Positions 7,527 through 29,924 of a DNA stretch of 32,000 nt are shown here, one piece after another; position 1 is the first letter of the stretch, and the number at the start of each line of letters is the position of its first letter. Source of the DNA: Pseudodesulfovibrio piezophilus C1TLV30 (GTDB taxonomy: Bacteria > Desulfobacterota > Desulfovibrionia > Desulfovibrionales > Desulfovibrionaceae); assembly GCF_000341895.1 (NCBI RefSeq), contig NC_020409.1, positions 1,620,001 to 1,652,000 on the forward strand, written 5' to 3'. A model generated the notes under the pieces. That model worked only from the letters and a program-made list of their open reading frames with translations, had not been told where the DNA came from and did no database searches. The position numbers were made by a program, and so were the translations under genes.

Positions 7527-8762
7527 ATGAAAAAACTGGTTATTCTCGGCGCTGGCGCCGGCGGAACCATGGTCGCGACCAAGATGCGCGAGAAACTGGA
7601 TCCGAAGGAATGGAAAATCACTGTCATCGACCGTGACTGGAAGCATCACTACCAGGCAGGTTGGCTGTTCGTTCCCTTCGGTATCTACAGCCTGGAAGAC
7701 TGCGAAAAACCCAAGGCCGATTTCCTGCACGGCGTCGATTTTGTCCAGGACACCATCGTCAATGTCGATCCCGAGAAGAAGCTCGTCACCTGCCAGGGCG
7801 GCAAGTACGATTACGACTGGATTGTCGTGGCAACTGGCTGTCGCATCATGCCCGACGAAATCGACGGTATGCTCGATGATTGGCGCGGCGATATCCATGA
7901 CTTCTATACCCCTGACGGAGCCATGGCCCTGTTCAAGAAATGGAAGTACATGAAAGAAGGCCGCATTGTTCTGAACATTGCCGAAATGCCCATCAAGTGC
8001 CCTGTGGCACCTTTGGAATTTGTCTACCTGGCCGACTGGTTCTTTACCGTCAACGGTGTGCGCGAAAACATCGAGATCGACCTGGTCACCCCGCTGACCG
8101 GAGCCTTCACCAAGCCTGTGGCCGCCGAGATTCTGGGCCGCGTTTGTGAAGAAAAGAATATCAACGTCATCCCGAACTTCACCATCGACAACGTCAATGT
8201 CGGCAAGAAAGTCATCGAGGACGTCATGGGAGAAGAAGTACCCTACGACCTGCTCGTCGCCATTCCGCCGAACTTCGGCGCCCAGTGCCTGATGGACTCC
8301 GAGATCACTGATCCCATGGGATACATGGCAACAGACAAGCACACCCTGAAGTCCTCCCAGTTCGAAAACATGTACATCATCGGTGACGCAACCAACTGCC
8401 CGACATCCAAAGCCGGTTCCGTCGCTCACTACGAAGCCGACATCGTCGTGGACAACATGCTTCGTGAGATGGACGGCGAAGAAGCCCGTCCCGAATTCGA
8501 CGGTCACTCCACCTGTTTCATCGTTTCCGGTTACGAAAAAGCCTACCTCATCGACTTCAACTACGATGTCGAGCCGCTGCCGGGTAAATACCCATTCCCC
8601 GGTCTCGGACCCTTTGCCCTGCTCGGTGAGAACCACCAGAACTACTGGGGCAAGATGATGTTCAAGTGGGCCTATTTCAACCTGATGCTGAAAGGTCACG
8701 AGCTGCCGCTGGAATCCCAGATGTTCATGGCTGGTAAGATGCGCCACGTGGCCGGAAAATAA
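7527..8762 (+). CDS. Sulfide:quinone oxidoreductase-like FAD-dependent oxidoreductase
   Basis: 411 aa with AAGGAG as RBS. It has an intact ILGAGAGG FAD motif, SQR-family-like Cys contexts (ATGC, IKCPVAPLEF, HSTCFIV) and IIGDATNCPTSKAG. Confidence 0.8.
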   Translation: MKKLVILGAGAGGTMVATKMREKLDPKEWKITVIDRDWKHHYQAGWLFVPFGIYSLEDCEKPKADFLHGVDFVQDTIVNVDPEKKLVTCQGGKYDYDWIVVATGCRIMPDEIDGMLDDWRGDIHDFYTPDGAMALFKKWKYMKEGRIVLNIAEMPIKCPVAPLEFVYLADWFFTVNGVRENIEIDLVTPLTGAFTKPVAAEILGRVCEEKNINVIPNFTIDNVNVGKKVIEDVMGEEVPYDLLVAIPPNFGAQCLMDSEITDPMGYMATDKHTLKSSQFENMYIIGDATNCPTSKAGSVAHYEADIVVDNMLREMDGEEARPEFDGHSTCFIVSGYEKAYLIDFNYDVEPLPGKYPFPGLGPFALLGENHQNYWGKMMFKWAYFNLMLKGHELPLESQMFMAGKMRHVAGK

Positions 8763-8780
8763 CCAGGCGGAGGCACTATC

Positions 8781-9488
8781 ATGAGTAATGAAGCAATAAT
8801 GGAACGCCTCGACAAGATCGAGGAAAATATCGCCTTCCTGACGGAACGGGCGAAAGCGACCGAAGAACTCAAGAATGACCTGACGCCGATCATGCATGAC
8901 GGTTTCAAGGTTCTCATGAGCGAATTCGGAAGCATCGAGCATGGCTTCCAGCTTGAAGATCTCACCGAGTTCATCAAGAAGATGATGGTCAGCATGAAAA
9001 ACATGACCTACATGCTCGACAAGATGGAAGACATCATCGACCTGTGGAAGACCATTGCTCCGCTGCTGCAGCACTCCGTGCCCCAGCTCATCGAGTACAT
9101 GGATACCCTGGAGCAGAAAGGCGTCTTTGACACCTACCGCGCCATGATCGAGATCCGTGCCAAAGTCGCTGAGACCTATGGCGTGGAAAACATTCGCAAC
9201 ATGGGAGACTCTTTTGTCTTCCTGGTCGGAATGCTCGAAAAGCTGGGCGATCCCAAAGTTCGCATGATGATCGAAGGCGCTGCCAATGCCTTCTCCGAAC
9301 TGGATCTGACCACGGTCAAACCCACCGGGCCTCTGGGCATGGTCGGCGGCATGGCATCCAAAGACGCCAAGCGTGGCCTGGGCATTATGCTCGAAATGAC
9401 CAAGACCCTCGGAAAAATTGGCCTGGAAGTCCCCAAAGTGGACGCTCTGGCCAATCAGAAAGCCGCAGCCAAAGCTGCCGCCAAATAG
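8781..9488 (+). CDS. DUF1641-type helical protein (the usual partner of SQR-like oxidoreductases)
   Basis: 235 aa with GGAGG as RBS, 18 nt after the SQR-like gene. It is helical and Met/Glu/Lys-rich, with a C-terminal region that matches my memory of DUF1641. The family assignment is from recollection. Confidence 0.6.
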   Translation: MSNEAIMERLDKIEENIAFLTERAKATEELKNDLTPIMHDGFKVLMSEFGSIEHGFQLEDLTEFIKKMMVSMKNMTYMLDKMEDIIDLWKTIAPLLQHSVPQLIEYMDTLEQKGVFDTYRAMIEIRAKVAETYGVENIRNMGDSFVFLVGMLEKLGDPKVRMMIEGAANAFSELDLTTVKPTGPLGMVGGMASKDAKRGLGIMLEMTKTLGKIGLEVPKVDALANQKAAAKAAAK

Positions 9489-9795
9489 CATCACTGACGT
9501 GGGCGGTCCTTCCAGGATCGCCCACGATATAAAAATACGCCCTTAATTGTTCTGGCTATTGCCAGGACTCCGCGACGGCCCGTGTCGCCCCTTGCTTGCA
9601 AGGCCCAAGGCATGGAGCTGGCCTTGGCGACACGGGCCCCTCACGGTGTATGGACACCATCGCAAAAAAGAACTGATACGAGGAAGTCCCAGGGCAAACT
9701 TCATCCCAGCTCCTTTCCATGAAAATCGAGTCACGGCCCGGTTCTCAAGGCTCAGTTGACCCCTCAGCCGAGGCTCCAAATATACGAGGTTTGAT

Positions 9796-10254: not shown

Positions 10255-12237
10255 ATGACTGAAGCTCCGCTCTATGCTGCCTCACACCCGTTTTCGGTCT
10301 TGCTCGTTGATGACGAGGAAGATATCCGCGAACTGCTTGGCATGCTCCTCAACGACCTCGGCTACACCGTTCAAACGGCGAAAAATGGTCAAGCTGCTCT
10401 CGAACTTTTCCGAACGGTCCAGACCACGGAAAGGCCGGATATCATCCTGACGGATATCAAGATGCCCGGCATGGACGGCATCGAACTCCTTCGCACCATC
10501 AAGGCTGAAGCACCCGAAATCGAAGTGATCATGATCTCCGGTCATGGTGACATGCAACTCGCCATCGAATCCCTCAAATTTCAAGCCGCTGACTTCATCA
10601 CCAAACCTATTGACGACGACATTCTGGCTATTGCCCTGAACAAAGTGACGGAAAAGCTCTCTCTACGCCGCCAGATCAAGGAACATACAGAAAATCTCGA
10701 ACGACTTGTCGAGGAAAAGTCCGCGCGCGTTGTGGAACTGGAACGTCAGACCGCGGCCGAACAGATTGTGGACGGATTATCCAGTGCCATGTCCATCATT
10801 TCCGATGACGTGGATGACTCCGGTGTTTTCAATGAGCTTCCCTGTTTCATTTCCATCCACTCCTCGGACCTCAAAGTCATCACAGCCAATGGTTTGTATG
10901 AACAACGCTTTGGCGACAGAACAGGCGAATCCAGCCGGTCCATATACACCTCTCATACAGGTCAGGGCAGTTGTCCTGCTTATGAAGCTGTCGCCACCCG
11001 CCTCGGCGGACGAAGCACAGCCACGCTCATGGGACTCGATGGCGCGGAAATTCCAGCCGTTGTTTATACCGCTCCCATTACCGGGAATGATGGCAAAGTC
11101 TCTTTGGTCCTGGAGGTGGCCGTGGATGTTTCCGAAGTCAATCGCCTCCAAACGGCTTTGACCGCTACCCAGCATAAATACGAACGCCTTTTTGATCAGG
11201 TCCCGTGCTACATAACAGTCCAGGATCAAAATATGCGCATTGTCGAAGCCAATGCCCGCTTTCGTGAAGACTTCGGTTTTGACCGCGGTCCCAATTGCCA
11301 CCATGCTTACAAGAATCTCAACGACGTGTGCGACGGATGCCCCGTGCAAAAGACTTTTTCCGACGGTCTCCCCCATCAACGGGAAACAGTGGTGACATCC
11401 AAAAACGGCACACAGATCGATATCCTGGTCTGGACAGCGCCCCTTCGCAATGAGCATGGGGAAATCGAACACGTCCTCGAAGTCTCGACCAATATTTCCA
11501 AAGTCCGGGCCTTGCAGAACCAATTAACCAGCCTCGGCATGATGCTTGGCTCCATGTCTCACGGCGTCAAAGGATTGCTGACTGCCATAGACGGTGGCAT
11601 CTATCGAGTCGAATCCGGCCTCAGCAAAAACGACATGGATCGCGTGGACAAAGGATGGAAGGTCGTCAAACACCGCATAGGCCATATGAAAAAAATGGTC
11701 ATGGATATCCTCTATTACGCCAAATCGCGCGAATTGGAATTGTCCCGGACGACACTGGGAGACTATGCCACGGATCTTGCGGACCTGATCGCGCCCAAAG
11801 CCGCAGACCATGACATTTCGTTTGTCCGTCGCTTTTCCCAGCCAACAGTCACATTCGAAGCTGACGTCGCTGCCCTTTCATCCGCATTGGTCAATTTCCT
11901 GGAGAATGCCATGGATGCCTGCGTCTTCGACCGCTCCACCACCCGACACTGTGTCACCTTCACCGTTTCCGCAGATTCCAAAACAGTCCACTTCGAAATC
12001 ACTGACAACGGCATAGGCATGGATCGCGAGACCCGCGAAAACATGTTTACCCTGTTCTTTTCCTCCAAGGGCGCAAACGGCACCGGTATAGGACTGTTCA
12101 TATCAAATCAGGTCATCGCCAGGCACAACGGGACCATTGATGTGGACTCCAGCGTGGGCAAAGGGACACATTTTCACATCCGCATTCCAATGACTCAAGC
12201 GGGCTGTGAGAACTGTATGGAGAGCGTGACCGGCTGA
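10255..12237 (+). CDS. Hybrid sensor kinase: N-terminal receiver, two PAS-like modules, HisKA and HATPase
   Basis: 660 aa. The REC domain has VLLVDDEEDIRE...ILTDIKMPGMDG. The H-box is GSMSHGVKGLL. N/G boxes are ENAMDA, DNGIGM and GTGIGL. The second PAS carries C-x10-C-x2-C. Confidence 0.9.
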   Translation: MTEAPLYAASHPFSVLLVDDEEDIRELLGMLLNDLGYTVQTAKNGQAALELFRTVQTTERPDIILTDIKMPGMDGIELLRTIKAEAPEIEVIMISGHGDMQLAIESLKFQAADFITKPIDDDILAIALNKVTEKLSLRRQIKEHTENLERLVEEKSARVVELERQTAAEQIVDGLSSAMSIISDDVDDSGVFNELPCFISIHSSDLKVITANGLYEQRFGDRTGESSRSIYTSHTGQGSCPAYEAVATRLGGRSTATLMGLDGAEIPAVVYTAPITGNDGKVSLVLEVAVDVSEVNRLQTALTATQHKYERLFDQVPCYITVQDQNMRIVEANARFREDFGFDRGPNCHHAYKNLNDVCDGCPVQKTFSDGLPHQRETVVTSKNGTQIDILVWTAPLRNEHGEIEHVLEVSTNISKVRALQNQLTSLGMMLGSMSHGVKGLLTAIDGGIYRVESGLSKNDMDRVDKGWKVVKHRIGHMKKMVMDILYYAKSRELELSRTTLGDYATDLADLIAPKAADHDISFVRRFSQPTVTFEADVAALSSALVNFLENAMDACVFDRSTTRHCVTFTVSADSKTVHFEITDNGIGMDRETRENMFTLFFSSKGANGTGIGLFISNQVIARHNGTIDVDSSVGKGTHFHIRIPMTQAGCENCMESVTG

Positions 12238-12282
12238 CATCCGAGGCTCGTCAGTCGGTCTGCTCCTCCACCGGAGAAAACC

Positions 12283-14604
12283 ATGTTCACCGCCTTCAGC
12301 GACTGTTTTGGGAAGCTGCAAAAGTCCCTCTCAATGAAACTTGTCATTCTGGTCATGTTTCTGACCACTCTCTCAATGACAGGCGTTTTCTTTGCCTATG
12401 CCGATAAAGAAAAAAACGATAATTTACGCAGGGCAGCCATGCGTGCCGAAGATCTCACCAAAGTCATACAAATCGGTCTTCGGTCTACCATGAACCAAAT
12501 TCCTCACAAGGCAACAGCCGAATTTCTCACCCAGATAGCCGATCTTGAGTGTATTCATTCAGTCTCCATCCACGATGCCTCGGGACTTCTGCTCTTTTCC
12601 GGGAATGACAGCAGCCCAACTCTCCTTGACTTCAAGGACATACTCACACTTTTCATTTCCCGAAATCAGATTTCTCAACCGGGACAGGAATCTCTCCAGC
12701 ATCAGGATTCTCTCATACCCAATGGAAATTCAGGGCGTTTTCTACGTCGAGTCAGTCTAATTCCCAATGAACAGGGATGTTCCACTCCCCTCTGTCATAC
12801 CGCTCAAAATGACGCCCCATTCCTTGGCTCGCTGGAACTGACCATTCCAGTCGAGAGCAATAAAAAAGTTTTCACCATACGAAAGACGCTTCCCCTCTTG
12901 GTCGCACTGATCTCGCTCACCGGTATGCTGCTGACTCTTCTCATGACAACCAAATACATGATTCACCGTCCAATGCAGCGAATACTCCGGGGCATCCGTC
13001 GAATCGCGCATGGCGACTACACCACCGTTGTTACCGTCAACCAGCATGACCAGTTCGGACTTCTTGCCGAAACCATCAACCGCATGGCTCGCAATGTCGA
13101 GACTCACCATGCGGAACTCTCCCGGCAGCGAGCACTCTACCAATCGCTCTTCGAAGGTGTTCCCTGCCTGATTACCGTTCAGGACCGGAACTATACACTC
13201 CTTCGTTTCAACCAGGCGTTTGCCGATCGATTTAACGCCCAACCGGGTGATCATTGTTACGAAGCGTACAAAGGAAGGAATCGCAAATGTGACGAATGCC
13301 CTGTCGAACGCACTTTTGCCGACGGGTTGTCACATACAACCGAAGAAATAGGCTCCTACAAGGATGGAACCCGAGCACACTGGATCGTCAACACGGCTCC
13401 CATCTATGACGAAAAGGGGACAGTCGTGGCCGCCATGGAAATGAGCCTCGACATCACACAACGAAAACGCCTCGAAGAAGACCTCAGGGCTTCGGAACAA
13501 AAATACTATGCCATCTTCAACACCATCCCCAGCGCGGTTCTCGCTATTGACGCTGCCACTCATCACATTATTGACTGCAATAAAACTGCAATATCTCTGT
13601 ATGGTTATACTAAGGGGAATTTAATCAGAAAGCCTTTTGAAAAATTGATTTCTCCTGACGAAATTGCCGCTCACAAAGATGCGTTTGCCACAACACTTTC
13701 GCTGCGCCGTACCAAGCACATTGACGCGAACAAAAAGGAATTCTGGGCCTCTGTGACTCTTTCGCGGACCCGTTTCCAGACACAAGATGTCCTTCTGACT
13801 GTGATTACCGATATCTCCGAACGAATCAGCTCAGAAGAACAACTGATCCAGGCCAGCAAAATGGCGACCCTTGGAGAAATGGCAACAGGTGTTGCCCATG
13901 AATTGAATCAACCCCTGGCTGTCCTTCAGATGATTGCCAATCTTTTTCGGCGCAAACTAAAGCACAACAAACCCATTGACGCTGAAACCGCCGGGAACAT
14001 GGCAGACAAGATTACCAACAACGTCAACCGAGCTACCAAGATAATCAACCACATGCGCGAGTTCGGGCGCAAGTCAAACCTTGAGACGGAAGAGGTCCGA
14101 CTTAACAGAGTCGTCCGCCGGGCTTTCGACCTTTTCAGCCAACAGCTCAAGCTCCATAATATCACCGTCGAATGGTATCTTGAGGAAGAGCAACCCATCA
14201 TTCATGCCGATTCCAACCGACTGGAGCAGGTCTTTATCAACATGCTGATCAATGCCCGAGATGCCATTGAAGAACGCTGCGCCAATGCCGAGTGCTCTGC
14301 TCCCGAACGCTTCATCGTCATCCGTACCCGATCCACCCGTCGTTCTGTCATAGCCGAAATCCACGATTCCGGAACCGGCATACCCAAAGAACTTCTGCCT
14401 CGTCTTTTCGAACCTTTCTTTACCACAAAAGAAGTCGGGCAAGGGACCGGCCTAGGCCTCTCCATCTCTTACGGTATCGTCACCGACTACGGTGGGACCA
14501 TTCATGTCACCTCCCCACGCTCCCATGGTTCTCGATTCACCATCACCTTTCCTCGCGCTGCCACAAGAAGCCAGAAGCAGTTAAAATCAAACACCTACCG
14601 ATAA
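12283..14604 (+). CDS. Membrane sensor histidine kinase (periplasmic domain, HAMP, two PAS, HisKA, HATPase)
   Basis: 773 aa with GGAGA as RBS. Two TM segments flank a ~170-aa periplasmic region. HAMP shows RIAHGDY. The H-box is VAHELNQPL. N/G boxes are NMLINARDA, DSGTGIP and GTGLGL. The first PAS is paralogous to the Cys-PAS of the preceding kinase. Confidence 0.9.
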   Translation: MFTAFSDCFGKLQKSLSMKLVILVMFLTTLSMTGVFFAYADKEKNDNLRRAAMRAEDLTKVIQIGLRSTMNQIPHKATAEFLTQIADLECIHSVSIHDASGLLLFSGNDSSPTLLDFKDILTLFISRNQISQPGQESLQHQDSLIPNGNSGRFLRRVSLIPNEQGCSTPLCHTAQNDAPFLGSLELTIPVESNKKVFTIRKTLPLLVALISLTGMLLTLLMTTKYMIHRPMQRILRGIRRIAHGDYTTVVTVNQHDQFGLLAETINRMARNVETHHAELSRQRALYQSLFEGVPCLITVQDRNYTLLRFNQAFADRFNAQPGDHCYEAYKGRNRKCDECPVERTFADGLSHTTEEIGSYKDGTRAHWIVNTAPIYDEKGTVVAAMEMSLDITQRKRLEEDLRASEQKYYAIFNTIPSAVLAIDAATHHIIDCNKTAISLYGYTKGNLIRKPFEKLISPDEIAAHKDAFATTLSLRRTKHIDANKKEFWASVTLSRTRFQTQDVLLTVITDISERISSEEQLIQASKMATLGEMATGVAHELNQPLAVLQMIANLFRRKLKHNKPIDAETAGNMADKITNNVNRATKIINHMREFGRKSNLETEEVRLNRVVRRAFDLFSQQLKLHNITVEWYLEEEQPIIHADSNRLEQVFINMLINARDAIEERCANAECSAPERFIVIRTRSTRRSVIAEIHDSGTGIPKELLPRLFEPFFTTKEVGQGTGLGLSISYGIVTDYGGTIHVTSPRSHGSRFTITFPRAATRSQKQLKSNTYR

Positions 14605-15534: not shown

Positions 15535-16596
15535 TTAGGGAAAAACTATTTCCACCTGCTCAGCCGCAGGTTCGCGCTTGACGATCTCACCGATGCGATA
15601 TGCGTCCACATCATCACGAGCATCAAGTATCTCCAGCGCGGATTCGGCGGAGTCACAATCGCAAATCAGAATATACCCGATACCGCAGTTGAAGATCTGG
15701 AGCATTTCCGGCCAGGAGAGATCCCCTTCATTCTTGAGCCAGTCAAAAATGGGCAGCATCGGCCAAGAGCCGAACTCCACTGAAGCGGCTGTGTCTTCGG
15801 GCAGGATACGGGGAACGTTGTCGTAAAAACCACCTCCGGTCACATGAACCATGCCTTTAATGGGCAGGGTCTTCATAAGCTCAAGGACCGGTTTGACGTA
15901 TATTTTCGTGGGCTCGATAAGGACATCAGCCACGGTCGCATCCGTTCCGGGGAAAATATCATCATTCTTGAGACCGGATTGCGTCAGAATTTTGCGAATA
16001 AGCGACCAGCCGTTTGAATGCGCACCAGTTGAAGCAAGACCGATAAGGACATCGCCCGGAGAAACATCTTTACCCGAAACAAGCTTGGGGGAATCGACCA
16101 TCCCCACAGCAAACCCGGAAAGATCATATTCTCCATCGGGATAAAAACCTGGCATTTCTGCGGTTTCTCCTCCCAACAAGGCACAATCAGACTGGCGACA
16201 CCCTTCACAGACACCGGAGACAACCTGCTCGGCAACACCGGATTCGAGCTTTCCCGTGGCAAAATAATCGAGAAAGAAAAGAGGAGCCGCACCCTGCACC
16301 AAAACATCATTCACGGACATGGCAACCAGATCAATCCCCACAGTGTCATGCCGGTCAAACATGAAGGCCAACTTGAGCTTGGTCCCCACACCATCTGCCC
16401 CGGCCACCAGCATGGGAGCCTCCATTCCAGCCACATCAGGCTTGAACAGTCCTCCGAAGCCACCAATATCAGTCGCCACACCAGGCGTGAAGGTGGACTT
16501 CACCATATCCTTGATCCGACTGACGAATTGATTGCCAGCTTCGATATCCACACCAGCTGCGGTATATGCCTTGGAACGTTTGGCGCTGTCGCTCAT
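15535..16596 (-). CDS. purM: Phosphoribosylformylglycinamidine cyclo-ligase (AIR synthetase)
   Basis: 353 aa with GAGGAG as RBS: YTAAGVDIEAGN...DIGGFGGLF...GADGVGTKLK...DLVAMSVNDVLVQGAAPLFFLDY...HSNGWSL. Confidence 0.95.
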   Translation of the reverse strand: MSDSAKRSKAYTAAGVDIEAGNQFVSRIKDMVKSTFTPGVATDIGGFGGLFKPDVAGMEAPMLVAGADGVGTKLKLAFMFDRHDTVGIDLVAMSVNDVLVQGAAPLFFLDYFATGKLESGVAEQVVSGVCEGCRQSDCALLGGETAEMPGFYPDGEYDLSGFAVGMVDSPKLVSGKDVSPGDVLIGLASTGAHSNGWSLIRKILTQSGLKNDDIFPGTDATVADVLIEPTKIYVKPVLELMKTLPIKGMVHVTGGGFYDNVPRILPEDTAASVEFGSWPMLPIFDWLKNEGDLSWPEMLQIFNCGIGYILICDCDSAESALEILDARDDVDAYRIGEIVKREPAAEQVEIVFP

Positions 16597-20172: not shown

Positions 20173-20291
20173 GAATCACGAAACCCCACCGGGGAAGTCT
20201 GAATATTGCGCATCGCGGTCAACCGGATATCCTTGCCAAAAGCAATACGGCATTGTGCCGACTGCAATAAAAACACAGATTGGAGAGAACC

Positions 20292-20633
20292 ATGTATTGC
20301 CTCTATGCGTTCAATGGAGACTTGATGTGCTTTGTCCATGTTCTGCTCAATGGGCTGGATATGCAGGAACGGGGGAAGGATGTCGCTATCGTCCTTGAGG
20401 GGGCTGCGGTCACTCTGGTCCCTGAACTGGAAAAAGTGAGCTGTCCTTTCCATGCTCTCTATAATAAGGCCAAAACAACGGGCCTGATTGACGGAGTCTG
20501 CAAAGCATGTTCGGCAAAACTCGGTGTGCTTGATGCAGTCAATGAAGCCGGGCTGGTCCTGCTTGATGACATGTCAGGGCACCCCTCCATGGCGGCTTAT
20601 ACCGAAAAGGGATACACAATCATCACCTTTTAA
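20292..20633 (+). CDS. DsrE-family small protein (short ~115-aa DsrE-like type)
   Basis: GGAGAG lies before ATG 20292; the track uses TTG 20280. The protein is 113 aa: MYCLYAFNGDLMCFVHVLLN...IVLEGAAV...GVCKACSAKLG...YTIITF. This resembles the short DsrE-like proteins as I remember them. Confidence 0.6.
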   Translation: MYCLYAFNGDLMCFVHVLLNGLDMQERGKDVAIVLEGAAVTLVPELEKVSCPFHALYNKAKTTGLIDGVCKACSAKLGVLDAVNEAGLVLLDDMSGHPSMAAYTEKGYTIITF

Positions 20634-21081: not shown

Positions 21082-22566
21082 ATGGCTCAACGTGAACAAT
21101 GGGGTTCCCGTGCCGGCTTTGTGCTGGCAGCGGTCGGCTCCGCCATCGGATTAGGAAACATCTGGCGTTTCCCATACATGGCCTATGAAAATGGCGGAGG
21201 CGCTTTTCTCATTCCTTACATTTTCGCCCTGCTCACAGCAGGCATTCCCTTCATGATCCTTGAATTCGGCATGGGGCACAAATTCCGTGGCTCCGCGCCC
21301 AAAGTTTTCAGTCGAATCGGCACCAAGTGGGAATGGCTTGGTTGGATGCAGGTTCTGGTGGCTCTGGTCATTTCCATATATTATGTGGCGGTTATCGGCT
21401 GGACCATCAACTACACCGGTTTTGCGGTCAACCAGGCATGGGGAAGTGATCCCAAGGGATTTTTCTTCGGTGAATATCTCGGTCTGACAGGTTCTCCGCT
21501 GGAATTGGGCGGCATCCGCTGGCCTATCCTCGGGGCATGCACCATGGCCTGGGCCATCACCTGGCTTGCATGTACTTCCGGTATACGCAAAGGCATTGAA
21601 CGAGCCTGCAAGGTGCTCATTCCATTGCTCTTCGTCCTCGTGCTGGTGCTCATATTCCGTGTCGTGAACCTGCCCGGCGCAGCCACTGGTCTCGACTATC
21701 TTTTCAACCCCGATTTCAGCAAGCTGGCTGACTTCTCTGTCTGGGCCGATGCCTATGGCCAGATATTCTTCTCCCTGTCGGTCGGATTCGCCATCATGCT
21801 GGCCTACTCCAGCTATCTGCCCAAGGAAGCGGATATCAACAACAACGCAGCCATTACCGTCTTCATGAACTGTGGTTTCTCCATGCTCGCAGGCATCATG
21901 ATCTTCGCGGTGCTCGGCAATATGGCCCACGCCACAGGACAGGCTGTCAATGACGTGGCCGGAGCCGGTGTCGGTCTTGCCTTCATTACCATTCCGGCAG
22001 CTATCAACACCATGCCCGCACCCGTATTCTTCGGCACTTTGTTCTTCGTTTGCCTGACCATGGCCGGCGTCAGCTCCCACATCTCCATTGTGGAAGCCGT
22101 CTGCTCTTCCTTTATCGACAAATTCGGCTGGAGCCGTAAAAAGACCACAACGCTGGTCTGTTCCTTCGGCTTTGCCATGACCGTCATTTTCACGACTGGC
22201 GGCGGCCTGCTCATTCTCGATATTGTTGACCACTTCATCAACAACCTCTGCATTCTGGGCCTGGCCTTGTTGGAAATCGTCCTGATGAGCTATATTGTCG
22301 GGCTTGAGGACATCCGTAACCATGTCAATGCATCTTCCGATTTCACGGTGGGCAATGCATGGATGCTCTGCCTCAAACTGGTGACCGTCGCCGTTCTCGG
22401 CTACACGTTCATCATGAATATAGTGACCGACTACGGCACTCCGTATGGCGGGTATGCCACCAAAGACCTTCTGGCCCTTGGCTGGTCCATCCTGCCCATT
22501 GCGTTTGTCATGTCCTTAGCCCTGAACAGGAAGCAGGCAGTACCCGGCTTCATCGGCAAAAAATAG
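21082..22566 (+). CDS. Sodium-dependent NSS/SNF-family (SLC6-like) transporter
   Basis: 494 aa with the signature N-terminus WGSRAGFVLAAVGSAIGLGNIWRFPYMAYENGGGAFLIPY and 11-12 TM segments. Confidence 0.95.
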   Translation: MAQREQWGSRAGFVLAAVGSAIGLGNIWRFPYMAYENGGGAFLIPYIFALLTAGIPFMILEFGMGHKFRGSAPKVFSRIGTKWEWLGWMQVLVALVISIYYVAVIGWTINYTGFAVNQAWGSDPKGFFFGEYLGLTGSPLELGGIRWPILGACTMAWAITWLACTSGIRKGIERACKVLIPLLFVLVLVLIFRVVNLPGAATGLDYLFNPDFSKLADFSVWADAYGQIFFSLSVGFAIMLAYSSYLPKEADINNNAAITVFMNCGFSMLAGIMIFAVLGNMAHATGQAVNDVAGAGVGLAFITIPAAINTMPAPVFFGTLFFVCLTMAGVSSHISIVEAVCSSFIDKFGWSRKKTTTLVCSFGFAMTVIFTTGGGLLILDIVDHFINNLCILGLALLEIVLMSYIVGLEDIRNHVNASSDFTVGNAWMLCLKLVTVAVLGYTFIMNIVTDYGTPYGGYATKDLLALGWSILPIAFVMSLALNRKQAVPGFIGKK

Positions 22567-22575
22567 GAGACTTCC

Positions 22576-22677
22576 ATGTCCACATCCGCAATCATCATGA
22601 TGGTCGTCGGTCTGGGTGTTACATGGGGAGGCGCAGCATTCTGCATTCGCCTCGCCATCAGCAAACAAAACGATTAA
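22576..22677 (+). CDS. MetS-like NSS transporter small subunit (33-aa single-TM micro-protein)
   Basis: Below the ORF-track size cutoff. AGGAGA lies 5 nt upstream of ATG 22576, 10 nt after the NSS stop. The sequence is MSTSAIIMMVVGLGVTWGGAAFCIRLAISKQND. It fits the M..GAI.MM..G...WGG.A pattern of small subunits encoded after MetP-type NSS genes. A strong terminator follows. Confidence 0.7.
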   Translation: MSTSAIIMMVVGLGVTWGGAAFCIRLAISKQND

Positions 22678-22753
22678 GACCAGACACCTTTGCTGAGCGG
22701 TCCGACGACGGTTCCTCACTTCCGGATTGACCGGAGTTGTCAAGACTCAAAAC

Positions 22754-22806
22754 AGGCAGGCCTGTTCCGTGTATAAGCGGAACAGGCCTGCCTCATTTCT
22801 TTTGTC
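22754..22806 (+). terminator. Rho-independent terminator of the NSS/MetS operon
   Basis: A perfect 16-bp stem AGGCAGGCCTGTTCCG / CGGAACAGGCCTGCCT with an 8-nt loop, followed by CATTTCTTTTG. Confidence 0.8.
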
Positions 22807-22911
22807 GTCAAAAGAACTCGAATTCATCCTTTTCAAGGCAGGAATTGCCAAGAACCAAAATTCCTTTTATCTTCTGAGAATGAGAGAAGACATGAAGCTT
22901 GGAGAATCCTG

Positions 22912-24063
22912 ATGCACCGACGACACCTCTTCCCGTTCCTGCTCCTCTGCACCATGATATCATGGAGAGGACAAGCTGCTGCTTTCCACCAATCCCCCCC
23001 ATTCATCACCGTGGATGAATTCGTTGCCCTGCATCCGGAACAGCACTCCCTGATGCAGACATTCAGTCAAATTGTCGCACAACCAGGAGTCAAGCAGGGG
23101 AAAATCCACAAGAAAAGAATCAAGATTGCTGTCATCTATCCGGATATTCAGGTTTCCGACTATTGGCGACGGAGCCTGCACTCATTTATTGAACGCCTGG
23201 ATGAAATCGGCATCAACCACTCTGTGACTGAATATTCTTCAAAAACTTCCAACGAATACAAGGCGCAATTCGGCCAGGTTCAGAATGCCCTTGAAGATGA
23301 CCCGGATTACCTTATTCTGACCTTTGATATTTTCCGACACAAAACTCTCGTTGAGAGACTTCTGAAAAGAAAACGTCCCAAGATAATCCTGCAAAACATC
23401 CTAACCCCGCTCAGGGATTGGGAAGGATTTCAACCGTTCATGTACGTCGCTTTTGACCACACCATCGGAGCCCGTCTTCTTGCTGATTATTTTACAATGA
23501 GAACCGGCGGAAAAGGGACATATGGATTGCTGTATTTTCCGACCGGGTATGTCAACACCATGCGCAGCGACACCTTCCGCAACCTGATGGAAAGGACATC
23601 GATAAAACTGGTCAAATCCGCCCATACAGACAGTACAGTGGCCGATGCAGCCAAAGCAGCCAGGGAGATCCTGTCCCACCAGACTGTGGACTTCATCTAC
23701 GCGACCTCCACCGACATCGCCCTTGGTGCAATCAAAGCCATAAAACAACGACATCAAAGCGGCAAAGTTCTGATCAACGGATGGGGAGGAGGCAGCGCAG
23801 AGTTGAAGGCACTCATGAAGGGAGACCTGGATGTAACCATCATGCGCATGAATGACGACAACGGGGTCGCCATGGCGGAAGGAATCCGCCTCGACCAGGA
23901 AGGACGTGGAGACACAGTCCCGACTATCTATTCCGGGGAAATGGTTCTGATCGAAAAAGGCATTGCCCCCCATGATCTCGAAATGCTGATCAAACGAGCC
24001 TTCCGCTACTCGGGGAAACCTTCCCTAGACATACCAATACATGACCACAAAGTGACAAAATGA
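22912..24063 (+). CDS. luxP: LuxP-like periplasmic autoinducer-2 (furanosyl borate diester) binding protein
   Basis: 383 aa with GGAGA as RBS and a signal peptide. Blocks are collinear with Vibrio harveyi LuxP as I recall it: IAVIYPDIQVSDYW, DYLILTFD, IILQNILTPLRDW, QPFMYVAFDH, DFIYATSTDIALGA, INGWGGGSAELKALMKGDLDVTIMRMNDDNGVAMAE and KRAFRYS. Confidence 0.8.
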   Translation: MHRRHLFPFLLLCTMISWRGQAAAFHQSPPFITVDEFVALHPEQHSLMQTFSQIVAQPGVKQGKIHKKRIKIAVIYPDIQVSDYWRRSLHSFIERLDEIGINHSVTEYSSKTSNEYKAQFGQVQNALEDDPDYLILTFDIFRHKTLVERLLKRKRPKIILQNILTPLRDWEGFQPFMYVAFDHTIGARLLADYFTMRTGGKGTYGLLYFPTGYVNTMRSDTFRNLMERTSIKLVKSAHTDSTVADAAKAAREILSHQTVDFIYATSTDIALGAIKAIKQRHQSGKVLINGWGGGSAELKALMKGDLDVTIMRMNDDNGVAMAEGIRLDQEGRGDTVPTIYSGEMVLIEKGIAPHDLEMLIKRAFRYSGKPSLDIPIHDHKVTK

Positions 24064-24666
24064 GCCACCAAGAACAAAAAGATGAAAAATTTCGTGAAAC
24101 CCAAGAATTCTCGGAATCGGATCTGGCCACTTAAACGCATAGATAATGGCCCCCAACGAGTAGACAACTCCACCGGCTACCAGCCAGAACAGCGCCCCGG
24201 CAGAGAGGGCCTGAACCAATGGGTAAATCCCCACAATGACAAGCCATCCCATGGCGAGATAGACAGCTGTCGACAGTCGGCGCGGTGCCTGAAGCCAGAA
24301 TATTTTCATCATGATTCCAGCCAGCGCCAGCCCCCAGATAATCCCGAAGAGAGACCACCCCCACGGTCCACGCAAGGGGATCAGACAAATGGGGGTATAG
24401 GTAGCGGCAATGTAGAAAAAGATCATGGAGTGATCAACACGTCGCAAAAACAATACTCCCTTCTCGGAAACGGGGAGCCAATGATACAGCGTACTCGCTG
24501 TATACAACAAGATCATCCCGCCGCCAAAAATGGAAAAAGTCACAATATGCCACGGCATGACAGGATTCACAGAACGAACGATAAGCAGCACGGTAGCCAA
24601 TACCGCCAGAAAGGCCCCGATAAGATGGGTCAATCCGCTGACCGGATCACGAAGATTCAGGATCAT
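24025..24666 (-). CDS. Hemolysin III / PAQR-family membrane protein
   Basis: Starts at ATG 24666 (GGGAG 7 nt upstream); the track start is 24732. Seven TM segments, with motifs LTHLIGA, YTASTLYH, RVDHSMIF and HEIFHLFVL. Confidence 0.9.
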   Translation of the reverse strand: MILNLRDPVSGLTHLIGAFLAVLATVLLIVRSVNPVMPWHIVTFSIFGGGMILLYTASTLYHWLPVSEKGVLFLRRVDHSMIFFYIAATYTPICLIPLRGPWGWSLFGIIWGLALAGIMMKIFWLQAPRRLSTAVYLAMGWLVIVGIYPLVQALSAGALFWLVAGGVVYSLGAIIYAFKWPDPIPRILGFHEIFHLFVLGGSFCHFVVMYWYV

Positions 24667-24822
24667 GGAAAACTCCCTGTATGGTGTCTCTATACCCCAT
24701 GAGTACACGCTTCCCCTCGCTTGAACAAGCACTTGCCATGCCTGTCGGACTCACTGAATGAGGATCGAAAGACACTGACGGGATTGTCCAATTTTCGAGC
24801 CTGAAATCGATTCCCCGAAAGA

Positions 24823-25269
24823 TCAATCCATAAGCATGGGGCGTGATTCGCTCTGGGCACATTGCTCCACATCGGCAAGCATATCTGCGAGGGTAAAGCT
24901 ATTCAACCGCTCATACATCGCTTCGGCCGCTTCACACCAGAGACGTCGCGTCAGGCAGACCTCAATCCGGTCACACCCGTCAAGACCGCTCCGGCACTCT
25001 ACCAAAGAATCGTCCCCTTCCAGGACTCGCACCACTTCGCCCATGGGAATTTCCGATGCGGGCCGAGCCAGGGCATGCCCCCCCCGCGGTCCACGCTTGC
25101 TTTTGATAAATCCCGCATCTTTGAGTTTACGAATCAATTTCTCCAGGTACTTAATGGAGACTCCCTGTCGCTCGGCAATGTCCTGAATGCGCACCAGACC
25201 ATTATCGCAATGTTGAGCGATATCGACCGCCATCCGTGTCCCATACCGACTCCGTGTCGTTAACCGCAT
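24823..25269 (-). CDS. Rrf2-family transcriptional regulator (second copy)
   Basis: 148 aa: MRLTTRSRYGTRMAVDIA..., IKSKRGPRGGHAL, and a C-x6-C-x5-C cluster (ECRSGLDGCDRIEVC). Confidence 0.9.
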   Translation of the reverse strand: MRLTTRSRYGTRMAVDIAQHCDNGLVRIQDIAERQGVSIKYLEKLIRKLKDAGFIKSKRGPRGGHALARPASEIPMGEVVRVLEGDDSLVECRSGLDGCDRIEVCLTRRLWCEAAEAMYERLNSFTLADMLADVEQCAQSESRPMLMD

Positions 25270-25730: not shown

Positions 25731-26327
25731 TTAATTCGATTGTTTGCTCTTCATGTAAGCGACGATTCCAAAGAGCCCTATAATATATCCGATACCGCCA
25801 AGAATTTCTGTCATGCCCGGCCCGGAGTCATGCATTTCAGCCAACATTTGTTTGACCGGTCCCAGCTCTCGGCGAACGATTGCTTCAACGGCAGCAGTGT
25901 CGAGAGTCCCTGCAACAGGCGTAACCGAAGCAGGTATCTGAGCATCCATACCGATTTCCTCGGGAATAAAAGGCACCGGGCCTGCTCCGTATTCGGCATA
26001 ATGAATAACCCACTCGGCCTGATGCCCGCTTCCCGCCTTGAGGACAAGTCGAAGATCCATCCGCTTGGCCCTGGCTTCTTCCGGAATCTTGAAATCGAAC
26101 TTGCCGTTATCATCGGTTCTTCCGGTCAAAAGCTGTTTGCCAGAGGCCGCATCATACACTTCAATACTCCCGTTATGCACCCGCTTGCTCCGACTATAGC
26201 CACTATCTGTGGCAATGGAGTCGCCATCCACATAAGCGAACAAATTAACCTTGTGCGCACTCGAAACAGCAGCCATGCACAGTGTCGCCGCCATGGCAAT
26301 GCAGACCACAATTATCAATTGTCTCAT
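25731..26327 (-). CDS. Ni/Co ECF-type uptake accessory protein (NikL/CbiN-like), made of a signal peptide, a beta-sandwich domain and a C-terminal TM
   Basis: 198 aa, starting 2 nt after cbiM. The signal peptide is followed by a carboxypeptidase-regulatory-like segment (IEVYDAASGKQLLTGRTDDNGKFDF). The C-terminal TM ILGGIGYIIGLFG resembles the CbiN/NikN GIGY motif. Confidence 0.6.
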   Translation of the reverse strand: MRQLIIVVCIAMAATLCMAAVSSAHKVNLFAYVDGDSIATDSGYSRSKRVHNGSIEVYDAASGKQLLTGRTDDNGKFDFKIPEEARAKRMDLRLVLKAGSGHQAEWVIHYAEYGAGPVPFIPEEIGMDAQIPASVTPVAGTLDTAAVEAIVRRELGPVKQMLAEMHDSGPGMTEILGGIGYIIGLFGIVAYMKSKQSN

Positions 26328-26329
26328 GA

Positions 26330-26938
26330 TTATAATCCCGATGTTACGGCCAAGGCTTCCGGCTTGACCTTGGCAATGAATGTGTAAGTAAAGCCAGTAA
26401 TAACGCCTTCGACAAACATGACCGGCAGATGTGCTGCAAGGAGAACCTTGGCCGCTCCAACAAACGCATCACCCGAAAGAGCCAAAGCTCCGGCTGTCAG
26501 GAGGGCGCTCAAGAGCATGGCGATGAAACCACAGGCAAAAGCCGCAGCAAAACGACTCCCGCTTCCTCTCGTCAATAATGGACGAAAGAGAATGGAGCAG
26601 AGCACTGCCGGTGCGGCCATGGTAAAGGTATTCAACCCCAAGACAGTCAGCCCGCCGTACTGAAAGAGCACGGCCTGCAATAACAGCGCGACCAGAATGG
26701 AAGGAAATGCAGCCCACCCCAAAATAACACCGAGCAGTCCACCCAGAATGAGATGAGCATTTGCCGGACCTATGGGGACATGAACGAGAGAAGCGACAAA
26801 AAATGCTGCCGACAGTATCGACACCGTTATGATATGGTCATAGTCGAGCTTTCGCAGACCAATGGCAGTGCCTATGACAGTCAATCCCGCACCACCCAGC
26901 AAAACAGGCGCTGACAGAACCCCTTCGGAAATATGCAT
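26330..26938 (-). CDS. cbiM: CbiM/NikM substrate-capture component of a cobalt/nickel ECF transporter
   Basis: 202 aa. The invariant N-terminus MHISEGVL provides the metal ligands. The protein is polytopic with HVPIGPANAHLILG. Confidence 0.9.
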   Translation of the reverse strand: MHISEGVLSAPVLLGGAGLTVIGTAIGLRKLDYDHIITVSILSAAFFVASLVHVPIGPANAHLILGGLLGVILGWAAFPSILVALLLQAVLFQYGGLTVLGLNTFTMAAPAVLCSILFRPLLTRGSGSRFAAAFACGFIAMLLSALLTAGALALSGDAFVGAAKVLLAAHLPVMFVEGVITGFTYTFIAKVKPEALAVTSGL

Positions 26939-27172: not shown

Positions 27173-28420
27173 CTAATCGAAATCGGCCAGCAAGGCACTG
27201 ACTTGCACCCCGGCAATAACCGGGGTCTCATTGTACCGATTACTGATACGGTACAATGCGTGATGCAACTGACCGGAAGAAATCCCGTTTTTGAGCGCTG
27301 TATGCGCCTCGATATAAGCCGCCAAAGAATCACTCACTTTCAGAAGAGGGCCATCTTTGGGATCGATGGTATCGATATTATACTCTCCGGCCATCTGCTC
27401 TTCCGTTGCTTCGACAATAGTTCCATCCATGTTCACCGAGGCCTTGAACTCGCTCCCTACTTCCAGCCCCAGCAGATACTCGAGTCGCTTGGCGATATCT
27501 TCGTACCCTCCTTCCTTGAGAGGGGCGAGGACCACCCGATTCAACTCTCGAATCTCATATTCATGGATCAGTTCGCCTATCTCCTGCGAAGACCCTTTGA
27601 CCGGTGAAATGATATCGCGGGTGAGCAACTCCGGCAGATCGTGAAACAGACCGGAAAAAAAATTATTCTGGCAGCGTGCACGACACGCACCGACTTCCAT
27701 GCTGAAAAACCAGGAATACGTTGCCACAATGAACATGTGACCAAGCACCGACGTCTCCGGCACACGCGGTGTCTGGGACCACCTTTTCTGAAAACGCAAC
27801 CGACCACACATGCGGGCAAATCCACCCAGCACATTGGAATCCTCATCCAGCAGTTCGGAGACGCCTACCAGATCTCGCATGGAATTGAGCCGCTCAATGA
27901 AACTCTCTTCGATTTCGATCAACTCATGATCCATACGATTGATGGATTTGAGCAGCTTGAATTCCGAATAACTGGCATAGAGGTGGGCAGCATGAAGTAT
28001 CCTGCGAGCCAACCCCTTATCTTCCGGCTGCATGAGATACGCTGTCATGCGATTCATGAAATCATCGCCCAGCGGCATGATGCGCGGGCGCAACTGCTTG
28101 ATAACCCAATTGGTCAGAGTACTGTAGTCATCAGGGTTTTCCTTGATCTTGTAGAACACCGGCGGCTTGATATCGGTGATGACCAGCCGGTAGAGGTAGT
28201 CGAACAGCCCACCCTCGATGAGAGACTCTCCAAGGGCGCGCTTCCGTACCACATCAAGGTCTCGCGAATTGAGCAGGAAAAGCAACCAGGCCACGATCAT
28301 CTTGTGTGCCTGCTTGTCTACCTCTACAAGCTCCATGGGCCGAAGCTTGTCGTTCCACCGCTTCATGAACGCACCGGAAAAGATGAGTTCCAGAAGACTT
28401 TTTCTGATTATGATGGACAT
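27173..28420 (-). CDS. Tandem HD-fold protein (degenerate N-terminal copy plus a YfbR-like HD phosphohydrolase copy)
   Basis: The C-terminal half has FQKRWSQTPRVPETSVLGHM...GLFHDLPELLTRDI (H...HD...D). The N-terminal half parallels it (FMKRWNDKLRPMELVEVDKQAHKM...GLFDYLYRLVITDI) but lacks the HD His. The start is uncertain: ATG 28420, or TTG 28456 in the track. Confidence 0.7.
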   Translation of the reverse strand: MSIIIRKSLLELIFSGAFMKRWNDKLRPMELVEVDKQAHKMIVAWLLFLLNSRDLDVVRKRALGESLIEGGLFDYLYRLVITDIKPPVFYKIKENPDDYSTLTNWVIKQLRPRIMPLGDDFMNRMTAYLMQPEDKGLARRILHAAHLYASYSEFKLLKSINRMDHELIEIEESFIERLNSMRDLVGVSELLDEDSNVLGGFARMCGRLRFQKRWSQTPRVPETSVLGHMFIVATYSWFFSMEVGACRARCQNNFFSGLFHDLPELLTRDIISPVKGSSQEIGELIHEYEIRELNRVVLAPLKEGGYEDIAKRLEYLLGLEVGSEFKASVNMDGTIVEATEEQMAGEYNIDTIDPKDGPLLKVSDSLAAYIEAHTALKNGISSGQLHHALYRISNRYNETPVIAGVQVSALLADFD

Positions 28421-28459
28421 GGTGTGAAGAGTGCCGAAAACGGTACGGAAAGGCAAAGG

Positions 28460-28538: not shown

Positions 28539-29924
28539 CTATTTGCGTTCCAGAAGCGCGACAGTCTCAACATGATGCGTGTGTGGAAACATGTCAACGG
28601 CACGAGCACGCGTCAGGGTGTACTTTGAGGACAGCCGTTTCACATCACGAGCCAATGTTGTGGGGTCACAAGCCACAGCCACAATCTTGGCCGGAGCCAG
28701 GCGCAGAATGGAATACGCTGTTTTCTCCTGCATACCGGACCTCGGCGGATCAACAACGATCACGTCAGGAGTCGGCAGAGCATCGACATTTTCGATACCG
28801 CCATTCAAGCTCACGGCATGGAACTCACAATTATTGATGTGATTGAGCTTGGCGCTGGCCCATGCCTTGCCGATAGCCTCTTCATTGACTTCGTATCCGA
28901 TGACCCGACCGACCTCGTTCGCAAGATAGATACCGATGGCACCGGCTCCACAGTACAGGTCAAGGACGGTTTCATGTCCGGTAAAACCACCGAACTCGGA
29001 AATAGTGGCAAACAATTCGCTTGCGCCGCCACTATTGGTTTGAAAAAAAGTATTCGGGGCGAGATGATATCGAACACTCCCATCTCCCTTGGGCAGATGC
29101 TCTTCCACGAACTTATGCCCCAAGCGGTAGATGATCTCCTCGCCAAAGGCGATGGTGCTCCGCTTTCTGCGAATGGAATGAACAAAGGAGACGACCTCGG
29201 GGAATCTATCCATGAGTACTTCGGACAGTTCCTCCGGAAGATTGTACTTTCGCTCGTCAGCAGTCGTAATCAGATGAACCTGAACCTGGCCGATGGAAGT
29301 ATGACGCAAGACAAGATGCCGCCAGAAACCGGTATCGGTCTGGGGATGATACGCAACGACATTGGATTCGCGGCAGAAATCCCGCACACTGTGCATGATC
29401 GCCACATCACGCGAAGCGCACAAATGGCACTCTTCGATATCAATAACAGGACCAAGCCCTTTTTCCCCTCTGGGGAGGGTGGCTCTCAAGCCCAGATGCA
29501 GTTCGGCATCACGGTGCTCGAAAGCGAATTCCATCTTGTTTCGATAGCGCCAGATATCCGGGGACGGCACAGGGGCATCCATTTTCAGATTCTCAACGCC
29601 GCCGATGCGACTTAAGGCACTCGCAACCTGAGCACCTTTCTGTGCCAGTTGCTCAGCATAATCGAGATCCTGCACGGCGCACCCGCCACAAACACCGAAG
29701 TGCTGGCAGACTGGCTCAACCCTCAGCTTGGACGGCTCGACAATGGATTCGGCGACTGCTTCGGCAAACCGCTTCTTCGCCTTGAGAATTCGGGCAGACA
29801 CGGTGTCGCCAGGCAATCCTCCAGCGACAAAGACGGCCATACCGTCCACTTTGGCCACGCCGCGACCGCCGTAGGCCAGGGACTCAATCTCACACTCTAC
29901 GATGCTGTCTTTCACTATGGACAT
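28539..29924 (-). CDS. rlmD: 23S rRNA (uracil-C5)-methyltransferase RlmD/RumA
   Basis: 461 aa. It has an N-terminal TRAM domain (ECEIESLAYGGRGVAKVDG), the Fe-S Cys cluster CQHFGVCGGCAVQ, the SAM motif VLDLYCGAGAIG, and the catalytic DPPRSG...VACDP. Confidence 0.9.
   Translation of the reverse strand: MSIVKDSIVECEIESLAYGGRGVAKVDGMAVFVAGGLPGDTVSARILKAKKRFAEAVAESIVEPSKLRVEPVCQHFGVCGGCAVQDLDYAEQLAQKGAQVASALSRIGGVENLKMDAPVPSPDIWRYRNKMEFAFEHRDAELHLGLRATLPRGEKGLGPVIDIEECHLCASRDVAIMHSVRDFCRESNVVAYHPQTDTGFWRHLVLRHTSIGQVQVHLITTADERKYNLPEELSEVLMDRFPEVVSFVHSIRRKRSTIAFGEEIIYRLGHKFVEEHLPKGDGSVRYHLAPNTFFQTNSGGASELFATISEFGGFTGHETVLDLYCGAGAIGIYLANEVGRVIGYEVNEEAIGKAWASAKLNHINNCEFHAVSLNGGIENVDALPTPDVIVVDPPRSGMQEKTAYSILRLAPAKIVAVACDPTTLARDVKRLSSKYTLTRARAVDMFPHTHHVETVALLERK

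Follow-up and report, generated by a model that had tools for sequence, protein, structure and literature searches.

A stand-alone LuxP-type protein with an intact AI-2–borate pocket, conserved without adjacent LuxQ in a clade of marine Pseudodesulfovibrio-like sulfate reducers

We analysed a LuxP-type gene at 22912-24063 (+) of the 32,000-nucleotide stretch of DNA presented above, which we refer to in its entirety as the window. Its product is a bona fide periplasmic binding protein of the LuxP family, in which the pocket for S-THMF-borate, the borated form of autoinducer 2 (AI-2), is intact, and the lack of an adjacent luxQ gene is a conserved, selectively maintained character of the clade to which it belongs. 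Our preferred explanation, to which we assign a probability of roughly 55%, is that this orphan LuxP binds borated AI-2 and is read by an unlinked membrane partner of the LuxQ-periplasm type. An earlier note, made from the sequence alone, had described the gene as a LuxP homologue without LuxQ in a non-Vibrio context; the observation was real and the gene correctly identified, but its novelty was overstated, given that it clearly belongs to a known family and that an unpaired Desulfovibrio LuxP was published in 2008.

The window encodes a bona fide LuxP protein

In a phmmer search of all PDB sequences, the four best distinct sequences were all Vibrio harveyi LuxP (3.8e-85, 289 bits), with window residues 35-368 aligned collinearly to residues 9-341 of the LuxP chain, and pairwise comparison gave 45.9% identity over 327 columns, bearing out the collinearity that the earlier note had described for this 383-residue protein. 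Ribose-binding proteins, the next PDB family, reached at best 41 bits, and no LsrB chain was present among the 35 PDB sequence matches at E ≤ 0.01. The sole Pfam match was the generic Peripla_BP_4 (PF13407, 7.1e-23). None of the more specific NCBIfam models reached its cut-off, whether for RbsB (34 bits against 337), AlsB (26 against 335), XylF (25 against 390) or TorT, the trimethylamine N-oxide-binding partner of TorS (18.5 against 200).

An AlphaFold2 model built from a 35-sequence alignment (mean predicted local distance difference test score (pLDDT) 89.3; predicted template-modelling score (pTM) 0.86) was of low confidence only over the signal peptide and at the final 10 residues. It reproduced the LuxP-specific N-terminal extension, with helices at residues 34-40 and 43-56 preceding the first strand. 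Foldseek comparison of the model with the PDB, a structural check that the earlier note had proposed, placed V. harveyi LuxP entries in all of the top 8 positions. The best was 1zhh_A, apo LuxP from the LuxP–LuxQp complex (template-modelling (TM) score 0.94, r.m.s.d. 1.7 Å), and the AI-2-bound form 1jx6 gave a TM score of 0.86. Ribose-binding proteins (E ~1e-18, TM ~0.77) lay twenty orders of magnitude behind LuxP and aligned over ~290 columns, compared with ~340 for LuxP.

The ORF (open reading frame) begins with ATG, preceded 7 nt upstream by a Shine-Dalgarno sequence, GGAG, at 22901-22904 (+). By inspection, its N terminus, MHRRHLFPFLLLCTMISWRGQAAA, has the basic n-region, hydrophobic core and AXA motif of a predicted export signal; relatives with complete 5' ends have similar hydrophobic N-termini. 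An identical luxP from a JGI metagenome (3300009847; L003:3583-4635) was called as 350 residues from an internal GTG (V34), losing the signal peptide. Because homologues align from about residue 5, we consider the 383-residue start the better of the two; in the model, residues 6-20 form a separate N-terminal helix. At the other end, the KPSLDIPIHDHKVTK tail belongs to the window protein only: relatives end at ...AFRYSG(x), and the tail runs into the 3' end of the neighbouring hlyIII gene, giving a 39-bp overlap (24025-24063).

These data bear directly on whether the protein might be an ordinary ribose- or galactose-type binding protein of an ATP-binding cassette (ABC) transporter. Such an identity could draw on Peripla_BP_4 being the only Pfam match, but the LuxP score is 289 bits against no more than 41 for any sugar-binding protein, the RbsB, XylF and AlsB scores amount to about one tenth of their cut-offs, and the scanned window ORFs included neither ABC permease or ATPase genes nor lsr genes. 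We regard a sugar-transport role as very improbable indeed.

The AI-2–borate pocket is intact

To transfer the published contact residues, we numbered 1jx6 as chain index plus 23, a scheme that gives the expected residue type at each of the eight published positions. Every first-shell contact residue is identical between the two proteins (8/8): V. harveyi LuxP Q77, S79, W82, N159, R215, T266, W289 and R310 correspond to Q80, S82, W85, N162, R218, T267, W291 and R312 of the window protein, respectively. N159, R215 and R310 form hydrogen bonds to the furanosyl-borate diester (PMC6452917), the borate itself is contacted by R215 and R310 (PMC3794749), and the other contact residues line the same LuxP site, for which 16 further pocket-lining residues have been listed (PMC9920117). 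Of this second shell, 12 residues are identical and the remaining 4 are conservative replacements (P109T, I211V, A239S and V268I). The contact-residue numbers that the earlier note gave agree with 1jx6 numbering, and the motifs it quoted are all present (QVSDYW, LQN, Y..T.R.DTF, STDIALGA, NGWGGG and MRMNDD). The protein groups with LuxP rather than with ribose or galactose binders, and both arginines and the Gln/Ser/Trp set are conserved; the outcomes that the note had named as refuting its proposal did not arise.

The eight first-shell residues are invariant in 12 of 12 members of the window's own orphan clade, described below, and invariant or nearly so in 78 LuxQ-paired homologues from outside Vibrio; no pocket feature separates the orphan clade from these homologues or from Vibrio LuxP. 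An intact AI-2–borate pocket is thus present, and we infer from its sequence that the protein would bind AI-2.

A LuxP-fold protein could instead have been recruited to a different ligand, such as a borate-diol or furanosyl compound of seawater or sediment. V. harveyi LuxP itself has been crystallized with a borated xylulofuranose and a formose-derived analogue (PDB entries 4yr7 and 4yp9), the Desulfovibrio species examined lack luxS (PMC2561040, PMC7845633), and conservation specific to the orphan clade is seen at seven positions, among them T216, two residues away from R218. Against this stand the two pocket shells, which match V. harveyi LuxP at every first-shell position and differ only conservatively in the second, and the absence of anything that distinguishes the orphan-clade pocket from those of LuxQ-paired and Vibrio proteins; the lack of luxS is equally compatible with eavesdropping on the AI-2 of other species. 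A different ligand therefore strikes us as improbable. The earlier note had left the choice between an orphan AI-2 sensor with a distant partner and a receptor for another furanosyl ligand: the former is also the explanation favoured here, whereas the latter gained no positive support, both shells being conserved.

LuxP–LuxQ-periplasm modules are widespread outside the Vibrionales

The earlier note took LuxP receptors to be generally confined to the Vibrionales. This is the textbook view, and LuxP is still stated to be "present only in Vibrio spp." (PMC7584622), but the databases contradict it. A protein-database search yielded 1021 relatives at E < 1e-10, the best 120 of which are all non-Vibrio and include several that bear the NCBI/JGI name "autoinducer 2-binding periplasmic protein LuxP", and the family comprises 67 clusters at E ≤ 1e-30 (50% clustering). 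When one genome per GTDB species was scanned, 451 genomes proved to encode a LuxP relative, many of these relatives already named LuxP. The scan relied on the patterns NDDNGVAM and YP[GA]xQxSDYW, of which the window protein fits the first only, so the orphan clade may be under-sampled in this set; a metagenome scan with different patterns found two further orphan-clade loci. The best 80 of the 451 genomes belong to Desulfobacterota, Campylobacterota (Arcobacter and relatives), Alphaproteobacteria (Roseibium, Terasakiella), Gammaproteobacteria (Oceanospirillales, Marinomonas, Neptuniibacter, Halomonas) and Bacteriovoracaceae (Bdellovibrionota). LuxP homologues were reported in Oceanospirillales, Desulfuromonas and Desulfovibrio G20 as early as 2008 (Rezzonico & Duffy, PMC2561040), and a 2024 preprint describes luxP together with luxQ in Desulfobacterota metagenome-assembled genomes (MAGs) from cold seeps. 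LuxP outside the Vibrionales is not new; the family is, however, far wider than the literature says.

In D. ferrophilus, a kinase with a LuxQ-periplasm domain (PF09308) starts 4 nt after the LuxP homologue. An iterated profile search that started from this domain and covered all ORFs of 80 genome loci found a LuxQ-periplasm protein immediately downstream of luxP at 77 of the 78 informative loci; the three exceptions among the 80 were two loci cut by contig ends and one true orphan (L024). Pfam confirmed PF09308 in 78 of 78 partners. Metagenome loci gave the same picture (73 paired, 4 cut and 3 unpaired; 73/76 informative), bringing the total to 150 of 154 informative loci with a LuxQ-periplasm partner. 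The orphan arrangement is therefore rare, accounting for ~3% of the loci surveyed, mostly from the window clade.

The modules outside the Vibrionales (genome loci L004-L083, at about 11,000-14,500 in each; metagenome loci L093-L172) are also varied in output. Among the 76 partners of sufficient length for an output scan, 48 are HisKA/HATPase kinases (15 with a receiver domain), 24 are GGDEF-EAL proteins, 2 are SpoIIE phosphatases and 1 is a methyl-accepting chemotaxis protein (MCP). This suggests that AI-2-type sensing feeds cyclic di-GMP (c-di-GMP) signalling and chemotaxis in many marine bacteria; our literature search found no paper describing LuxP–PF09308 modules coupled to varied outputs.

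Two further unpaired loci deserve mention. Locus L024:9869-11077, the one further clear orphan in the set of 80 genome loci, lies on a 786-kb contig of a Psychromonadaceae MAG between Spo0M-like, LysR and SLAC1-like genes, and groups with V. harveyi LuxP and Marinomonas homologues in a neighbour-joining tree. On a high-GC metagenome contig (L099:2949-7146), a LuxP homologue has no LuxQ-periplasm gene downstream, and a dCache_1-GGDEF protein is encoded ~1.5 kb upstream, past a divergently oriented PBP_like_2 gene; this protein may be a different kind of partner.

The orphan state is a conserved character of a marine clade

In the neighbour-joining tree, the window LuxP falls within a clade made up only of metagenome proteins (P0002-P0009, P0011, P0012 and P0020), with orphan-clade relatives coming from TARA and seawater assemblies. 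Genomic context was retrieved for six members (P0002, P0004, P0005, P0006, P0011 and P0012), which are 50-58% identical to the window LuxP in the clade alignment. Five of the six share the gene order SNF transporter, small subunit, luxP, convergent hlyIII, Rrf2, (HI_1622_C), CbiM and HD; for P0012 the contig starts at luxP, and the downstream order is as in the other five. Two of the three unpaired metagenome loci (L093 and L094) show the same synteny, such that at least seven distinct relatives (50-59% identity) share the block of NSS transporter, 33-residue subunit, luxP and convergent hlyIII. Between P0004 and P0006, the ratio of nonsynonymous to synonymous substitution rates (dN/dS) of luxP is 0.115 at dS 0.33, indicating purifying selection. 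The orphan state is thus a conserved and selectively maintained character of this clade.

The same data address whether the gene might be the decaying remnant of a luxPQ operon. Its position in a slot whose content varies among related genomes (see below) would be in keeping with such an origin, but the frame is intact, dN/dS is low and the pocket is invariant in 12 clade members. A remnant seems to us no more credible than a sugar-binding protein, and the scores, the intact frame and dN/dS together effectively refute a reading of the gene as a ribose-binding protein or pseudogene.

An unlinked LuxQ-type partner is the favoured explanation

LuxP proteins have no output of their own, and seawater contains borate at ~0.4 mM. 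In the mechanism we favour, luxP would be transcribed alone and its product exported through the Sec signal peptide. Once in the periplasm, the protein would bind S-THMF-borate, or else a borated furanosyl diester nearly identical to it, and clamp the borate between its two arginines; the ensuing closure would most likely be read by a membrane protein that carries a LuxQ-periplasm (dCache-like) sensor domain and is encoded elsewhere on the 3.65-Mb chromosome. By analogy with the family, either a histidine kinase or a GGDEF-EAL enzyme would be expected in this role. A borated ligand would suit a marine host, given the abundance of borate in seawater, and a LuxQ-periplasm or dCache-like partner is the most likely type because of the pairing rule in the family. 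As the Desulfovibrio species examined are without luxS, AI-2 sensing here would amount to eavesdropping, that is, to a response to AI-2 released by neighbouring bacteria.

Several observations weigh against this explanation. Both the existence and the nature of an unlinked partner are pure inference, and unlinked partners are not the norm in the LuxP family. The literature we searched contains no biochemical AI-2 binding for any LuxP outside Vibrio. Across the 32-kb window, a 78-sequence LuxQ-periplasm profile, searched unfiltered against all ORFs and the six-frame translation, scored at best 2.8 bits, compared with 183 for the weakest true partner, which upholds the earlier note's statement that no LuxQ is adjacent; Pfam found no PF09308 in the window's two kinases, and the gene that follows luxP is the convergent hlyIII. 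Nor was a LuxQ-periplasm domain present near luxP at any orphan-clade locus, in context that extended up to 10 kb on each side and was often shorter at contig ends. LuxP is, moreover, the fastest-evolving protein of the syntenic block: between the window and its orphan-clade relatives (L084, L086-L089), LuxP is 51-59% identical, compared with 82-92% for SNF, 88-92% for Rrf2, 83-90% for HD, 76-84% for RlmD, 79-82% for HlyIII and 56-68% for the HI_1622_C-like protein, and its dN/dS is the highest of the block, the neighbouring genes having values of 0.005-0.106. Such fast divergence could reflect a changed or relaxed interaction surface.

Another possibility is that AI-2 is bound but no LuxQ-type sensor is involved, the protein either serving a different receptor, such as a chemoreceptor or an unrelated kinase, or acting as a periplasmic AI-2 sink or buffer with no transducer at all. 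The orphan state has been conserved across a clade diverged to 50-59% identity, in which the LuxP surface evolves faster than neighbouring proteins while the pocket stays fixed. The type of partner is also flexible, one family partner being an MCP and the nearest sensor at L099 a dCache_1-GGDEF protein, and binding proteins that serve chemoreceptors are established (PMC8050422), LsrB and Tsr in E. coli being one such pair. On the other hand, the clade shows no conserved candidate receptor near luxP, and we find no documented transducer-less LuxP. The orphan clade also retains 89 of the 93 positions at which LuxQ-paired LuxPs are conserved to 85% or more, the four exceptions being hydrophobic swaps; although this comparison cannot tell the LuxP–LuxQ interface from the core, it speaks against a major change of function. 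The window's own membrane kinase (12283-14604) makes a poor receptor: it is encoded 8 kb from luxP with unrelated genes in between, does not occur at the relatives' loci and has a periplasmic part that matches nothing. We consider this possibility unlikely on present evidence, yet the strongest of the alternatives, and would extend it only with similar reserve to the clade as a whole, in which marine Pseudodesulfovibrio-like sulfate reducers may use a stand-alone LuxP to sense the borated AI-2 of other species through a non-LuxQ partner, such as a chemoreceptor or a membrane protein of another class, or as a transducer-less sink.

We also considered the same membrane kinase as a hidden LuxQ and rejected it, given that it scored -0.9 bits against the LuxQ-periplasm profile and is not conserved near the luxP genes of relatives. 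Its 160-residue periplasmic part matches no solved structure, the HAMP region alone giving matches. This domain carries a CxxxC motif and likewise matches no Pfam family.

Comparison with known LuxP and AI-2 systems

The window protein shares with V. harveyi and V. campbellii LuxP (1JX6, 1ZHH and 2HJ9) the fold, including the N-terminal helices, the pocket and predicted periplasmic export. It differs from the V. harveyi LuxPQ system in having no luxQ downstream or anywhere in the 32 kb, in its monocistronic arrangement within a variable slot, and in its host, an anaerobe of the Desulfovibrionaceae. Closer at hand are the LuxP–LuxQ-periplasm modules of D. ferrophilus (L001), Pseudodesulfovibrio sp. 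MC-06 (L005), Arcobacter, Roseibium, Marinomonas and Neptuniibacter, which belong to the same family (44-54% identity), have invariant pocket residues and come from marine or sediment hosts; there, a PF09308 sensor (histidine kinase, GGDEF-EAL, SpoIIE or MCP) directly follows luxP, whereas the window clade has none.

Orphan LuxP in sulfate reducers has a published precedent in Dde_3311 of Desulfovibrio desulfuricans (now Oleidesulfovibrio alaskensis) G20, a LuxP homologue whose genome was reported to have neither an associated luxQ nor luxS (PMC2561040); it differs from the window gene in location and lineage. An Oleidesulfovibrio MAG (L010) encodes a LuxQ-periplasm kinase directly downstream of luxP, and for this reason the 2008 call may have missed a very divergent LuxQ domain. 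LsrB offers a functional parallel, being like LuxP a periplasmic type-I AI-2 binding protein and signalling to a chemoreceptor, Tsr, that is not encoded adjacent to it. LsrB nevertheless belongs to another family, binds the non-borated R-THMF through other pocket residues and is encoded inside an ABC-transporter operon.

Genomic neighbourhood and host

As the earlier note had described, luxP is flanked by an NSS transporter operon and a convergent hemolysin III gene (Table 1). The terminator-like hairpin ends the NSS operon and a promoter-like site follows it, which indicates that luxP is its own transcription unit. The RlmD protein of the window is 78% identical to those of Pseudodesulfovibrio sp. 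zrk46 and P. cashew, which identifies the host as a Pseudodesulfovibrio-like member of the Desulfovibrionaceae and agrees with the sulfate-reducer setting that the note had proposed. Of the gene content on which it had based that setting, a weak DsrE, an SQR-like Pyr_redox_2 gene with DUF1641 and a SelD-like AIRS gene were recovered; GSIII was not seen among the scanned ORFs.

The backbone from SNF to RlmD is the same in two cultured species, Pseudodesulfovibrio sp. zrk46 and P. sediminis. The slot that holds luxP, between the small subunit and hlyIII, encodes a 440-residue protein in zrk46 (L090:961-2283) and a 276-residue protein in P. sediminis (L091:16733-17563), neither of which has a significant Pfam family or resembles LuxP. 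Since the slot is variable and the NSS operon and HlyIII persist without luxP, the neighbours give no clue to its function. We accordingly rejected a functional tie between luxP and the NSS (Met/Ala-importer-like) operon or HlyIII, which the conserved synteny might have suggested, the same backbone occurring with unrelated slot genes and a strong terminator separating the NSS operon from luxP.

Other features of the region were noted in passing. The NSS transporter and the 33-residue ORF, MSTSAIIMMVVGLGVTWGGAAFCIRLAISKQND, are kept as a pair in all examined relatives for which the region was recovered, and the relatives' version of this ORF weakly matches a methionine/alanine-importer small subunit (PF16951, MaAIMP_sms). 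A 660-residue ORF at 7512-9494 (-), antisense to the SQR-like and DUF1641 genes and with no Pfam match, is almost certainly a shadow ORF. At two relatives' loci (L086:164-886 and L088:4706-5431), an AhpC-TSA peroxiredoxin is called as two adjoining fragments of 83 and 133 or 134 residues, the pattern expected of an in-frame TGA selenocysteine codon, which fits the SelD-like gene of the window.

Table 1. Positions of the luxP-like gene, its elements and other features in the window.
Feature	Position	Strand	Remark
Pyridine-nucleotide-disulphide oxidoreductase with rhodanese domain	5819-7438	+	
SQR-like Pyr_redox_2 gene (7527-8762) and DUF1641 gene (8781-9488)	7527-9488	+	
Cytoplasmic REC-PAS-PAS-HATPase sensor kinase	10255-12237	+	
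Membrane kinase	12283-14604	+	Transmembrane segment, ~160 aa periplasmic, transmembrane segment, HAMP, PAS, PAS, HisKA, HATPase
SelD-like AIRS protein	15535-16596	-	
Weak DsrE-like gene	20280-20633	+	
NSS/SNF transporter	21082-22566	+	494 aa
Hydrophobic small subunit MSTSAIIMMVVGLGVTWGGAAFCIRLAISKQND	22577-22678	+	33 aa; 10 nt after transporter
Intrinsic terminator-like hairpin	22754-22793	+	17-bp stem, 11 G-C pairs, T-rich tail
Sigma-70-like promoter candidate	22845-22873	+	TTGCCA, 17 nt spacer, TATCTT; consensus match only
luxP-like coding sequence	22912-24063	+	383 aa; periplasmic type-I binding protein with complete S-THMF-borate (AI-2) pocket
Predicted Sec signal peptide MHRRHLFPFLLLCTMISWRGQAAA	22912-22983	+	By inspection; A-A-A cleavage motif
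C-terminal tail KPSLDIPIHDHKVTK	24019-24063	+	~15 aa; window protein only; pLDDT <50
HlyIII/PAQR-family membrane protein	24025-24732	-	Convergent to luxP
Rrf2 regulator	24823-25269	-	
HI_1622_C-like protein	25731-26327	-	Named from relatives
CbiM	26330-26938	-	
HD-domain protein	27173-28456	-	
RlmD	28539-29924	-	

Implications

The question of how AI-2 is perceived by bacteria without luxS has been raised explicitly for Desulfovibrio, for which no receptor is known (PMC7845633). The window gene is a strong and easily testable candidate AI-2 receptor in a sulfate-reducing lineage. More broadly, LuxP–LuxQ-periplasm modules are widespread in marine bacteria, and in about one third of them the output is a c-di-GMP enzyme instead of a kinase. 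The conserved orphan arrangement could lead to a so far unrecognised partner of LuxP-type receptors. A non-LuxQ partner or an AI-2 sink, if true, would constitute a new mode of LuxP action and would offer an initial molecular entry point to AI-2 eavesdropping in sulfate reducers that lack luxS.

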